Source: Gammaproteobacteria bacterium
GTDB lineage: Bacteria; Pseudomonadota; Gammaproteobacteria; Eutrophobiales; Eutrophobiaceae
Assembly: GCA_965116495.1 (NCBI GenBank)
Contig: OZ220696.1
Span: forward strand, 2,880,001 to 2,944,000
Reading direction: 5' to 3'
DNA length: 64,000 nucleotides
Shown here one piece after another: positions 41,762 to 50,007 of the stretch. Positions within the stretch are counted from its first letter, which is position 1; each line of letters opens with the position of its first letter. The notes beneath the pieces were generated by a model. That model was not told where the DNA came from, searched no databases, and saw only the letters and a program-made list of their open reading frames with translations. The position numbers and the translations under genes are program-made.

Positions 41762-44341
41762 CTATCCCACGACGATGTTGACCAGGCGTTGCGGCACAAC
41801 GATGACTTTCTTTACCTGTTTCCCGCTGATATGCCGTTGTACGTTCTCATTGTCCAGTGCGGCCGCCTGGATCAGCTCTTCAGAGGCGTCCGGCAGGGTA
41901 ACGATCTGTGCCCGCTTTTTTCCGTTTACCTGCACCACCAGCTGACATTCATCTTCGATCAGGGCCGCGGCATCCGCGCGGGGCCAGGCGGCATCGATCA
42001 GGGCCGTCTGCTGGTCCATGGCGCGCCAGATTGCATCGGTGATATGCGGAATGATGGGTGACAGGAGCAGGACCATGACCTCCAGCCCTTCCCGCCGGAC
42101 TGCCCTGGCATTGCCGGATTCATCGTTCATGCGGTTCAGCGCGTTCAACAGTTCCATTACCGCGGCAATGGCGGTGTTGAAGGTATAGCGCCGGCCGATG
42201 TCATCATTGACCTTGACGATGGTCCGGTGGATCTTGCGGCGTACATCGCGCTGCTCACTGGTATAGGGGACCAGCTCTGCGCGGGGACTGTTCCGGTAAT
42301 TCTGCAAGGCGAATTTCCACAGCCGTTTGAGAAACCGGTGGGCGCCCTCAATCCCCGAATCCGACCACTCCAGGCTCTGATCCGGCGGCGCGGTAAACAT
42401 GACGAACAGGCGTACGGTATCGGCGCCGTATTTATCGATCATGTCCTGCGGGTCGACGCCGTTATTCTTTGATTTGGACATCTTTTCCATTTTGCCGATG
42501 ATCACCGGCAGGCCGTCCTCCCTGAGGCGGGCCGCGCTGATCCTGCCCCGGGCGTCACGCTCGAACTCCAGGTCGTTTCGGTTGTAATAGGTCCTGCGCC
42601 CCTGCTCTTCCCGGTAAAAGGTTTCTGCGACGACCATCCCCTGGGTCAACAGGTTCGTGAACGGCTCCCCGTAGCGGGTCAAACCCTGGTCTCGCATGAG
42701 TTTCAGGAAAAAGCGCGCGTACAGCAAATGTAACACCGCGTGTTCTATGCCTCCCACGTACTGGTCCACCGGCAGCCAGTAATCGGCCCGGGCATCCACC
42801 ATGGCTTCGTTATTATCGGCGCTGCAGAAGCGCGCAAAATACCAGGAGGATTCGAAAAACGTATCGAAGGTATCGGTTTCCCGGCGCACCAAACGGCCGG
42901 TTTCCGGATGGCGCGCATGCAAAAACTCATCTATGTCCCTGAGCGGCGAGCGCACGCCCGAGAACTCAATCTGTTCCGGCAATACCACGGGTAGTTCAGC
43001 CGCAGTAACGGGATCTGAATTCCCGTCCTCATCGGTGATGATGGGAATCGGACAGCCCCAGTAACGCTGCCTGGCTATCCCCCAATCGCGCAACCGGTAG
43101 TTGACCTTGCGCGCGCCGCGCCCGCATTCCTCCAGCCTCCCGGCAATGGCAGCAAATGCCTGTTCGGAAGTCAGGCCGTCAAAATCCCCGGAATTTTTCA
43201 ATACACCCTTAACCTCGCAGGCACCGCCATCCAGGTTCAACTCACTGCCGTCAGCAGGGTATACGACCGGCCTGATGGCAAGATCATATTTTTTTGCGAA
43301 TTCCCAGTCTCGCTGATCATGCCCCGGGACGCCCATCACGGCACCGGTGCCATAACCCATCAGGATAAAATTGGCCGTCCATACGGGCAACGCTTCCCCG
43401 GTAAGCGGATGCAGCGCGTACAGCCCCAGCGGCACCCCTTCTTTTTCCATGGTTTCCAGTTCGGCTTCCGTCGACCCGGCGCGACGGTGCCTGTGCAGAA
43501 AGTCGGCAACACCTGCGTTTTCCGCGGCAACGGCAACGGCCAGAGGATGCTCCGCAGCCAGCGCCAGGTAACTGACGCCGAACAAGGTGTCGGGTCGTGT
43601 GGTAAACACAGCGAGAGTGTCGGCGTTCCCTGACAGCTGGAACTCGACCTCCACCCCTTCCGAACGGCCTATCCAGTTCTTTTGCATGGTTCGCACCGAC
43701 TCGGGCCAGCCGGGCAGGTTGTCAAGCTCCCCCAGCAGTTCCTCTCCGTATTCAGTAATTTTCAAAAACCACTGAGGTATTTCCTTCCTTTCCACAACCG
43801 CGCCGGAACGCCAGCCCCGGCCGTCGATCACCTGTTCATTGGCCAGGACGGTCTGGTCAACGGGGTCCCAGTTGACGGGCGTAGTCTTTTTGTAGACCAG
43901 GCCTTTTTTATATAACTCGGTAAAAAACCATTGTTCCCAGCGGTAATAGTCCGGTTTACAAGTCGCGATCTCCCGGTCCCAGTCGTAGGCAAAGCCCAAC
44001 CGTTTTAACTGGGTGCGCATGTAATCGATGTTCCGGTACGTCCATTCCGCCGGCGCTACCCGGTTCTCTATTGCCGCATTCTCCGCGGGCAGGCCAAAAG
44101 CATCCCAACCCATGGGCTGGAGCACGTTCTTGCCCTGCAGGCGCTGGTAACGGGCTATCACGTCGCCGATGGTGTAATTACGTACGTGGCCGATATGCAG
44201 TTTCCCGCTGGGATAAGGAAACATGGACAGACAATAAAACTTTTCCCTGTCGGGGTCTTCCGTCACCTTGAAGGAGCTGTTTTGCTCCCACGCTGCCTGG
44301 ACTTCGAGTTCAATTTTCCGGGGTTGGTATGCTACATCCAT
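41762..44341 (-). CDS. leuS: Leucine-tRNA ligase
   Basis: [18 protein letters not shown]. Confidence 0.98.
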
Positions 44342-44510
44342 CTCGTATGATCTTGTCTGCATCAAACGGCAAAGCATACAGTAGAGGGATTGTGATGAAC
44401 AAGTGCAAAAGTTATCAGCGACCGTCCCCGCCTGCCGGGAACTGCTAAACAGGGGCGGCCTTGAACCCCGCCCCCGATCGCACTTTGTAATACCTTTTCC
44501 TGACGGTTTG

Positions 44511-44783
44511 TTATTCGGCAGGCTCGCCGACCGTCAGGAGGGCCCTGTTTTTTTCAACCAGGGTCTGGCCTATGCCCCTGATATGGGTCAATTCCTGTAC
44601 TGAATTGAAGCCGCCGTTTTGTTCCCTGTAGTTGATAATCCTTTCGGCGTAGCTTTCACCGATACCGCTCAGGGTCATCAGCGTTTCCTTATCCGCCGTA
44701 TTGATGTCAACCGCATCCCTGGCAAGAAGTAATGCCGGCAGGCAGAGTAACATGAGGACAGCAAGTCTCCTTAGTAATTGCAT
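44511..44783 (-). CDS. comEA: ComEA family helix-hairpin-helix DNA-binding protein
   Basis: Signal peptide; [26 protein letters not shown]. Confidence 0.88.
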
Positions 44784-44839
44784 AATGGTCTCCTTCTGTT
44801 TGAAAGTTTGTATTCCGTGATCCTTGACCACACAGGGAA

Positions 44840-45316
44840 GTTTAACAATCGCACCGGTACGGACAAGAAAAAGATTGCCCGGTTTGTGGGAAAAATCACA
44901 AATCGTGTCAGAATTACTTACGCTGCGTCACGCCGCCACACCCTGTCAAGGCCATGTTATAATCATTAATATCTTTGATTTTCAATAAGTTATGTTTAAA
45001 TAATCCGTCAGACCAAGCATTTTTCTGGGCGTGTCCGGCTTCTCGAAGGACAGTCTGTATACCCTTAAAGAGATTCTGGTTTATACTACACACATATGCC
45101 GGGCGAACGTAGCCGGGCCCTGTTATTAACGGGCAAAACAACCTGTGAGCAACCTATAGAAAAATGAGTCCAGTCACCAGGCAAACAAGTTGTCCACAGA
45201 CAATAAAGTGGAAAGGAGCATTAAGGAGGATCAAAAAAATGCGATACTCTTTTGATTTTAATGGAATAAATAAGTTTTCCAGAAACAAAGACGCTTAATA
45301 ACAACAAGATGGTACT
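44840..45316. other. Candidate replication origin (oriC-like region)
   Basis: AT-rich gap upstream of dnaN; near-consensus DnaA boxes at 44885-44893, 45190-45198 and 45275-45283; TAA-TAA-CAA-CAA run at 45296-45307; gene-strand switch; parS sites nearby. Confidence 0.6.
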
Positions 45317-46417
45317 ATGAATCTAACTATTACTAGAGAACAACTCCTGCCAGCGCTGAACAGCGTCTGCGGGGTTGTCGACAGCCGACCGACCCTTACC
45401 ATCCTTGCAAATCTCCTTGTCAGTATTTCCCCTCAGCAGATCCGACTGACATCTACAGACATGGAGGTGGAACTTTCCGCATCCATTTCAGGCGAGTTCG
45501 GTTCCTCCGGGGACATAACCATACCTGCGCGGAAGCTCTTGGATATTTGCCGAGCGCTGCCGGAAGATGCGCAAATGACGCTTGCAATTGAGAATGACCG
45601 GGTGAACCTGACATCAGGCCGGAGCCGGTTTTCCTTACTGTCTTTACCTGCACAGGAATTTCCCCTGGTCGAACCGGGCGAAACAGATGCCAGCTTCACT
45701 ATTGCCCAACAGTTGTTTAAATCGTTGCTGGACAGGACTGCTTTTGCCATGGCCAGGCAGGATGTCCGCTATTACCTTAATGGCGTTTTACTTGAGGCGC
45801 AGCACAATAGCCTGCGCGCGGTTGCAACAGACGGTCACAGGCTCGCCCTGAGTGATGTTGACGCTGTTATTCCTACAGAAGAAAAAAAGCAACTAATCGT
45901 TCCGAGAAAGGGGGTGCAGGAACTGCTGCGGCTGTTGGGGGAAACAGGTGACGAAACGGAAATCGTCATGAGTAAAAACCATGTCCGTATCGCGTTGGAC
46001 AACCTGGTTTTTACCAGCAAACTGATTGACGGCAAATACCCGGACTATAACCGGGTGATCCCTGAACCGTCAGTGCATCCGGTACTGGCACAGCGGGAAC
46101 AGCTCAGACAGAGCTTAAGCCGGGCCTCGATCCTCTCCAGCGACAAATACCGGGGTGTGAAAATCACGCTGGAGCAGAATAAACTGCGGGCGCTTGTTCA
46201 TAACCCGGAACACGAACAGGCGGAAGACGAGATTGACGTGGAATATACGGGAGAGAATCAGGAAGTCGGGTTTAACGTTTCCTACCTGCTCGATGCTGTC
46301 AGCATCATTCCAACCGACCGGGTCAGGCTTTCCGTGTCATCCCCGAAAAGCGGTTGTCTTGTGTTGCCGGAGGAAGGGGAAGGGAGCAAATATATCGTCA
46401 TGCCGCTGCTGCTGTAA
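45317..46417 (+). CDS. dnaN: DNA polymerase III beta clamp
   Basis: AMARQDVRYYLNG, VATDGHRLA, SKLIDGKYPDY. Confidence 0.98.
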   Translation: MNLTITREQLLPALNSVCGVVDSRPTLTILANLLVSISPQQIRLTSTDMEVELSASISGEFGSSGDITIPARKLLDICRALPEDAQMTLAIENDRVNLTSGRSRFSLLSLPAQEFPLVEPGETDASFTIAQQLFKSLLDRTAFAMARQDVRYYLNGVLLEAQHNSLRAVATDGHRLALSDVDAVIPTEEKKQLIVPRKGVQELLRLLGETGDETEIVMSKNHVRIALDNLVFTSKLIDGKYPDYNRVIPEPSVHPVLAQREQLRQSLSRASILSSDKYRGVKITLEQNKLRALVHNPEHEQAEDEIDVEYTGENQEVGFNVSYLLDAVSIIPTDRVRLSVSSPKSGCLVLPEEGEGSKYIVMPLLL

Positions 46418-46458
46418 GCGTCTGAACAACCCATGCAATACCTGCATCTGTGCTGCCA

Positions 46459-47520
46459 ATGCATATAGAATGGCTGCAGGTCAGAAATGTTCGTAATTTG
46501 TCCAATCTGAGGATTGAGCCGGGTCCTGGGCTTAATATCGTTTATGGCCCAAACGGCAGTGGTAAAACAGCGCTGCTGGAAGCCATCTACTTTCTGGGGC
46601 GATGCCGTTCTTTCCGCACGCCGGGGATAAACCGTGTTATTCGTCACCACCAAAAAGAATTACAGGTCAGCGCCGGCATGCGCATGCCGGATCGCTCCCT
46701 GGTTGTAACCGGGGTAGAACGCAGCAGGTCAGCGATAACCATTCGTTACAACAACCGGACTGTTCGCAGGGTATCGGAACAGGCGGCACAAATCCCTGTT
46801 ATCACGATAACACCGGACAGCCACGGGCTGGTTTCCGGAAGCCCCGTGTACCGCAGGCGCTGGCTGGATTGGGCGATGTTTCACGTGGAACCAAACTATA
46901 TTGAGGCCTGGCGGGATTACTATAAGGCACTGAAAAACCGAAACAGTTTGTTGCGCAGAAAGAAAGTAGAACAACTGGAAGCGTGGGAACAGGCCATGTG
47001 CCGGGCTGCCGGGATTATAAACAAGCAGAGGGACGCTTTTATTACTGACTTATCTGAAGAACTGGCAGGGACCGCACAGCAGCTTGATATACCACTGGTT
47101 GCGCTTGAGTATGACCGGGGCTGGGCGCCCGGTGATGACCTGGCGAAATTTCTCGCGACACAGCGCATGGGGGACCTGGAAAGAGGGGTGACCCGCTACG
47201 GTATCCACAGGAGTGAAGTGGTGATACGCCAGGACGGAAGAGACATCGGACACTTTTATTCCCGCGGCCAGATCAAGCTGTGTATCATAGCATTGTCTCT
47301 GGCCCAGGAGAGGGTATTCAGGCACAGGATGAGGCGCGCGCCTATTATCCTTTTGGACGATTATGGGGCAGAGTTGGACGTGGCCGGACAGCATCGTGTT
47401 ATTGACGTGCTGGCGGGTCTGGGGGGCCAGACTTTCATTACGACTACGGGAAAAATCCCGGCATGTGCGCACGGTAAACAGAAAATGTTTCACGTGGAAC
47501 AAGGCGTCCTCGTAACGTGA
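46459..47520 (+). CDS. recF: DNA replication/repair protein RecF
   Basis: GPNGSGKTALLEAI, SRGQIKL, LLDD; lies between dnaN and gyrB. Confidence 0.96.
   Translation: MHIEWLQVRNVRNLSNLRIEPGPGLNIVYGPNGSGKTALLEAIYFLGRCRSFRTPGINRVIRHHQKELQVSAGMRMPDRSLVVTGVERSRSAITIRYNNRTVRRVSEQAAQIPVITITPDSHGLVSGSPVYRRRWLDWAMFHVEPNYIEAWRDYYKALKNRNSLLRRKKVEQLEAWEQAMCRAAGIINKQRDAFITDLSEELAGTAQQLDIPLVALEYDRGWAPGDDLAKFLATQRMGDLERGVTRYGIHRSEVVIRQDGRDIGHFYSRGQIKLCIIALSLAQERVFRHRMRRAPIILLDDYGAELDVAGQHRVIDVLAGLGGQTFITTTGKIPACAHGKQKMFHVEQGVLVT
46877..46892. promoter_or_regulatory. parS centromere-like site in recF
   Basis: TGTTTCACGTGGAACC versus consensus TGTTTCACGTGAAACA. Confidence 0.8.
47486..47501. promoter_or_regulatory. 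parS centromere-like site in recF
   Basis: TGTTTCACGTGGAACA, 15/16 to consensus. Confidence 0.88.

Positions 47521-47601: not shown

Positions 47602-50007
<2,406 letters not shown>

Follow-up and report, generated by a model that had tools for sequence, protein, structure and literature searches.

The stretch considered here is a 64,000-nucleotide window (positions 2,880,001 to 2,944,000 of contig OZ220696.1, assembly GCA_965116495.1) of a gammaproteobacterium of the family Eutrophobiaceae, whose genome (G000 in our numbering) is a single 4.34-Mb contig with 99.5% completeness. Five-digit positions below refer to this window and longer ones to the genome. The plus strand carries dnaN (45317-46417, TIGR00663), recF (46450-47520, TIGR00611) and gyrB (47605-50007, TIGR01059), and dnaN is preceded by a gap of 533 bp and then, on the minus strand, by comEA (44511-44783, TIGR00426 and PF12836) and leuS (41762-44377, TIGR00396 with 1132.6 bits). 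An initial annotation, made from the letters of the window, had described this dnaA-free gap of about 530 bp with its divergent neighbours and had reported no dnaA, rpmH, yidC, mnmE, mnmG or parB in the 64 kb; the gene calls agree, and all of these genes map outside the window. It had offered two explanations: either a rearrangement separated dnaA from the replication origin (oriC), or dnaA was lost and replication is initiated here by another mechanism. The former is supported by an intact dnaA 70 kb away and by both junctions of an inversion found in relatives. It seems probable (about 0.8) that the last ~200 bp before dnaN are an ordinary DnaA-dependent origin, left behind when a likely single inversion of ~86 kb took the intact dnaA with it.

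The displaced dnaA lies at 2,854,102-2,855,418 on the minus strand and points away from dnaN. Its 438-aa product matches the PF00308 and PF08299 profiles, scores 587.7 bits against TIGR00362 (cut-off 343.9) and retains what we take to be Walker A, Walker B, the arginine finger and the domain IV signature. Beside dnaA, and divergent from it, are rpmH, yidC and mnmE, together with genes presumed from their position to be rnpA and yidD, while gspJ, gspK and gspL follow it directly. Loss of dnaA with a DnaA-independent start of replication at the dnaN locus, which the gene content of the window and its imperfect boxes had made conceivable, is refuted by this full-length gene, by a dnaA match in 41 of 41 genomes searched (partial in two drafts) and by the additional presence of an Hda-like AAA+ gene and of the DARS-like element treated below; we give it virtually no credence. 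A changed specificity of DnaA was also considered and rejected, as the domain IV signature is canonical. Of the 19 split genomes screened, all but G017 read HAHRK in domain IV, and the unsplit ones and G017 have HACRK or HACRR; the change from HACRK to HAHRK was given no weight, since it amounts to one event on one branch and His is presumably found at this position in Bacillus subtilis. In the 19 split genomes screened for it, the 400 bp that follow dnaA were free of one-mismatch DnaA boxes.

The last ~200 bp before dnaN can be aligned with the dnaA-dnaN spacer of relatives in which the two genes are still together (22 rows). The unsplit spacer contains two DnaA boxes, a site resembling that of integration host factor (IHF), a third box and a run of DnaA-trios. 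In the studied genome the gap contains no perfect TTWTNCACA, as had been stated initially, and the eroded-looking tandem recorded there (45144-45163) is present. Its first half is box 1, a candidate DnaA box on the minus strand (45144-45152) which has two mismatches here, is aligned with perfect boxes in the unsplit G010 and G013, and shows 0-2 mismatches among the aligned rows with several columns invariant or nearly so; its degenerate partner (45154-45163, minus strand) is weakly conserved. Candidate box 2 (TTGTCCACA, 45190-45198, plus strand) has one mismatch here, placing the studied genome among the four exceptions to a perfect box in 15 of the 19 split genomes. The IHF-like site (45245-45257, minus strand), identified with what we assume to be the IHF consensus, has at most one mismatch in 17/19 split and 3/3 unsplit genomes. 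Box 3 (TTTTCCAGA, 45275-45283, plus strand, one mismatch) is proximal to the trios, and the trio-like run TAA-TAA-CAA-CAA follows on the same strand at 45296-45307, where the annotation had placed it, and closes a stretch of 72% AT that is the predicted unwinding site; the 90-bp window around it belongs to the top 0.14% of the genome in AT content. The trio run is looser in some relatives, and both it and the IHF-like site keep a fixed spacing before dnaN among the aligned relatives. Box 3 is perfect in G010, G013 and the basal split genome G003 and in none of the 17 core-clade genomes, of which three (the studied one included) have one mismatch and 14 have 2-4. From this distribution, box 3 eroded after the inversion.

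The inversion itself can be followed through the relatives. In G010 the order is gspM-L-K-J-I...C (minus strand), comEA-leuS...polA... (plus), mnmE-yidC-rpmH (minus) and dnaA-spacer-dnaN (plus), and the part shared with G024, which belongs to another genus, is oriented alike. If the G010 segment bounded by gspI and the dnaA stop (206-292 kb, 86 kb) is flipped, two junctions are expected, and both were found: in G012, gspC-I is directly followed by the oriC spacer and dnaN, and in G000, G015, G018 and G017 dnaA is directly followed by gspJ. leuS, inside the inverted block, has the opposite strand relative to dnaN from that in G010. It is thus likely, judging from gene order, that a single, old inversion of ~86 kb separated dnaA from dnaN, with breakpoints that the relatives place just after the dnaA stop and between gspI and gspJ. 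The gspC-I block later left the origin side, so that comEA, the last gene of the inverted block in the studied genome, became the neighbour of the spacer. Left-arm skew is now seen in the inverted block (z -2.3), as it also is for its opposite orientation in G010 (z -3.5), so that both states are old enough for the skew to have been reset. Selection for co-directional genes was not shown: 76% of the block is leading-strand (52 of 70 called genes) compared to 35% in G010, but 3/28 other left-arm windows also reach 76%, and rpmH-yidC turned head-on.

A chimeric comEA-dnaN join, which the annotation had named as a possible refutation, was rejected. The order comEA-spacer-dnaN recurs in many separately assembled genomes, and contigs span the join: those of runs X1 and X3 cover 43500-47500 without difference (they may be the source of the assembly), and a contig of X6, from another study, covers 43973-47500 at ~96% identity. 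Both inversion junctions are kept in relatives, which likewise argues against an assembly error. With no point found in its support, the probability of a misassembly is negligible.

Separation of dnaA and dnaN was seen directly in 18 of 22 same-genus genomes. Thirteen have both genes on one contig, either 69-100 kb apart and divergent (10 genomes) or 320-602 kb apart (three), and in five they are on different contigs with other DNA preceding dnaN; in G021 and G007 a split is deduced only from what comes after dnaA. The two genes are adjacent in G010 and G013 of the same genus and in genera g2 and g3. Among 140 other genomes of the class, 127 have them adjacent (<1 kb, same strand; G063, marked unpublished, is included here and in the 401-genome survey of box patterns below) and one has them 2.7 kb apart, while seven were undecided at contig breaks, three look split (G044, G046 and G094) and two gave no dnaA match (G048, of 0.4 Mb, and G133). 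Such splits are uncommon in the class but have precedent. In an RpoB tree (26 rows, quick search) the 19 split genomes included group together apart from G010 and G013 (Shimodaira-Hasegawa-like approximate likelihood ratio test, 92), and a tree of RpoB, DnaA and DnaN (24 rows, unfinished and without support values) has the same shape, with G010 as sister to the split genomes. In the subclade of G005, G006 and G011, dnaA is 320-602 kb from dnaN and the skew is weak or mixed; in G006 gyrB is gone from behind recF.

The raw cumulative GC-skew minimum is at 2,925,710 (45710 in the window, inside dnaN), 0.4-0.6 kb from the spacer, and the maximum at 912,943, not far from 925,131, where a dif-like site is found. 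Skew at four-fold sites has its minimum at 2,921,340, 4 kb left of the spacer. Codon-corrected skew is negative on either side of dnaA, with z -2.3 from dnaA to the gap and +5.9 from the gap to the DARS-like element, and in the unsplit G010 and G023 the same correction places the minimum at the dnaA-dnaN spacer. The only perfect parS of the genome, for the motif as we presume it, is at the end of recF (47486-47501, plus strand), 2.2 kb from the gap, with a one-mismatch site at 46877-46892 on the same strand inside recF; 23 of 25 dnaN loci of relatives have a parS-like site with at most one mismatch. The skew minimum and the only perfect parS within 2.3 kb suggest that oriC stayed at dnaN, and the description of the locus as origin-like, made initially from the letters, is upheld by the conserved features of the spacer and by this minimum. 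An origin at mnmG of the E. coli type was rejected, as no box cluster is found there and mnmG (with parB at 3,135-3,140 kb) is 210 kb from the skew minimum. An origin at dnaN would, given dif at 925 kb, leave arms of 2.00 and 2.34 Mb, an imbalance of ~340 kb.

Perfect boxes form a cluster at a single place in the genome, 75 kb right of dnaN, between engB and rpmE (3,000,597-3,000,632). The opposed boxes I and II are 5 bp apart, box III follows 3 bp further, and a fourth box is ~170 bp off; with this box and its AT-rich flanks, which include an IHF-like site, the element covers 3000417-3000632. Movement of the origin to this element, or its sharing with it, would make the dnaN spacer a decaying relic, and could account for the perfect boxes, for a conservation far above that of the dnaN spacer and for a position nearer than dnaN to the point opposite dif in four of the eight complete split genomes. 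However, the geometry is that of E. coli DARS1 and DARS2, whose reference sequences were scanned alike, and the core pattern is present in 225 of 401 genomes of the class, with no match of a reversed-pattern control among the matches listed. The element follows rpmE directly in 19/22 same-genus relatives and 1 kb on in G010 (two contigs end there), and it is also present in G013, G023 and G024, so that it coexists in all four of these unsplit genomes with a normal dnaA-dnaN spacer; in G023 the skew minimum is at dnaA-dnaN, 111 kb from the element of this type. In addition, the studied genome has positive skew both left and right of the element (z +5.9 and +3.9), without a switch. An origin at engB-rpmE is therefore improbable, and by its architecture the element is most likely a DnaA-recharging (DARS) site. 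For the annotation, an intact dnaA together with canonical boxes clustered elsewhere, at the skew minimum, would have been a refutation. This holds by half: gene and cluster both exist, yet the latter is DARS-like and lies 75 kb away from the minimum.

Several observations weigh against an origin in the dnaN spacer. The four one-mismatch boxes of the gap (44885, 44887, 45190 and 45275, all except 44887 already listed initially) are not above chance, as 500 dinucleotide shuffles gave a mean of 1.7 (sd 1.3) and 46 of the 500 reached four; the case for real sites rests on conservation and not on number. Box 3 is eroded in the core clade, although trio-proximal boxes are essential in B. subtilis. 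The all-codon corrected skew has its minimum at 2,899,402, 26 kb left of the gap. In split relatives, sampled over only 120-200 kb around each gene, the local corrected minimum falls at a distance from dnaN of 17 kb (G005), 26 kb (G019) or 43 kb (G006), and G011 has negative skew (z -2.7) to the right of dnaN. The point opposite dif is closest to dnaN in two of the eight complete split genomes and to dnaA in another two, besides the four nearest to the DARS-like site, and it fails to discriminate among these candidates. The parS sites are inside recF and would move with dnaN wherever the origin is. Finally, G017 is on a long branch in both trees, which makes its placement unsure.

Part of this could be explained by an origin elsewhere in the flat-skew zone of 2,899-2,925 kb, or by one that moved with dnaA, the dnaN spacer then being a promoter region with regulatory DnaA boxes. 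The codon-corrected minimum would fit the flat zone, and the local raw skew of G011 turns at dnaA and not at dnaN. This signal of G011 loses significance once codons are corrected for, the studied genome has negative skew to the left and right of dnaA, no box cluster was found near dnaA or in 2,899-2,925 kb, and the IHF-like site and trios before dnaN keep a conserved, fixed spacing. We see only a slim chance for this alternative.

For the origin at dnaN, we infer from sequence origin function, IHF bending, a new promoter and DARS activity at these loci, which would work together as follows. DnaA made 70 kb away would act in trans and bind boxes 1 and 2, IHF would bend the spacer DNA, and DnaA-ATP would spread onto box 3 and the trios and cause the AT-rich stretch to open ahead of dnaN. 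In recF, parS would serve for the loading of ParB, and DnaA would be recharged at the DARS-like element 75 kb to the right. Since DnaA is diffusible and the oriC of E. coli is already away from dnaA, the split needs no new route of initiation. The cost of the split is that dnaN-recF-gyrB, with dnaA removed, need a promoter of their own. It is likely that the split clade gained one: an extended -10 of the form TG-n-TA(C/T/G)A(A/C)T is present at about -235 in 14/19 split genomes, in the former place of the dnaA 3' end, and dnaN-recF-gyrB may be transcribed from here in place of read-through from dnaA. In the studied genome, G001 and G019 this column holds the predicted -10 hexamer TATACT (45082-45087, plus strand, in the studied genome), and G006 and G011 have neither form. 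TATACT was not called in a sigma-70 scan, which found one site compared to 1.5 expected.

Box 3 eroded later and only in the core clade, where either the eroded box still binds cooperatively or the IHF loop is relied on. It is possible, if rather doubtful, that the genomes form a natural series in which dnaA came loose and dnaN gained its promoter, after which box 3 decayed in 17 sampled genomes, with the trios, the IHF site and one distal box retained at fixed spacing. IHF-looped delivery of DnaA would then make a minimal two-box origin, midway between the basal system and the loop of E. coli, with strong backing by DARS.

Other features of the gap seem to be unrelated to the origin. The one-mismatch box at 44885, reported initially as a DnaA box, is present as half of a CRP-type palindrome (TGTGG-N6-TCACA, 44885-44900) before comEA. 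Judged by what we assume to be the CRP consensus, such a palindrome is found in 12/18 dnaN loci of relatives, several with a perfect TGTGA-N6-TCACA, and the genome has a Crp-family helix-turn-helix gene, the only one found. The site goes with comEA and is probably regulatory and not a DnaA box. The AT-rich tract at 44958-45004 exists as annotated (87% AT) and is not conserved; it has no match in the dnaN loci of 25 relatives and no second copy in the genome, which places it outside the conserved origin.

On the other side of the rearrangement, dnaA is followed by a block of ~19 kb (2834000-2854100) with type II secretion genes in two tail-to-tail halves, a TonB-type receptor and a PIN/Phd pair. 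Over this block, identity to G015, G016 and G005 is 94-98%; for dnaA itself, compared in 150-bp bins, identity to G015 and G016 is ~74-89%. The closest kin, G001 and G019, have no gspI or gspJ match, and a short dnaA 3' piece precedes gspJ in G016 and G006. This pattern of identity suggests a recent horizontal transfer anchored on the 3' end of dnaA.

The locus is a well-resolved case of a broken dnaA-dnaN operon, with the origin likely remaining at dnaN. Finders of oriC that are keyed to the neighbourhood of dnaA or to the best box cluster would here put the origin in a wrong place, in the latter case at the DARS-like site. Our literature search, which reached papers partially and excluded supplementary lists of predicted DARS and origins, returned no paper on the arrangement of this clade, which is a weak negative. 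A transition from box-trio loading to loop-based opening has been proposed (PMC6669920), and if the eroded box 3 is dispensable, G010 and G003 versus G001 and G008 would be matched natural origins for studying it.

The comparison with known systems shows both retained and altered features. The canonical origin cluster is rnpA-rpmH-dnaA-oriC-dnaN-recF-gyrB (PMC4285127), and the B. subtilis unwinding region incC consists of DnaA boxes and trios, with essential trio-proximal boxes and distal boxes that act by looping (PMC6669920, PMC10721633). Here, too, the spacer directly before dnaN has distal boxes, a proximal box and then trios, and parS is within recF, as are parS1 and parS2 of Pseudomonas aeruginosa (PMC5521831). 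In contrast, dnaA has left its leading place in the operon and is now 70 kb away and divergent; there is just one proximal box, which is eroded in the core clade, and an IHF-like site stands between distal and proximal boxes. With E. coli, whose oriC is not next to dnaA (PMC6669920, PMC4285127), the locus would share an initiator gene unlinked from the origin, DnaA acting in trans and an IHF site in the origin. However, it was the origin that moved away in E. coli, with dnaA and dnaN remaining together, whereas here it is dnaA that left and the origin that likely stayed with dnaN; moreover, only one GATC occurs between box 1 and dnaN, and mnmG is far away. Similarly, the engB-rpmE element has the three-box core orientation of E. 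coli DARS1 and DARS2, the 5- and 3-bp gaps and the AT-rich flank with an IHF-like site (PMC6868365, PMC11724364), and differs in its gene context, in having at most one mismatch in each of the three boxes and in its distant fourth box.

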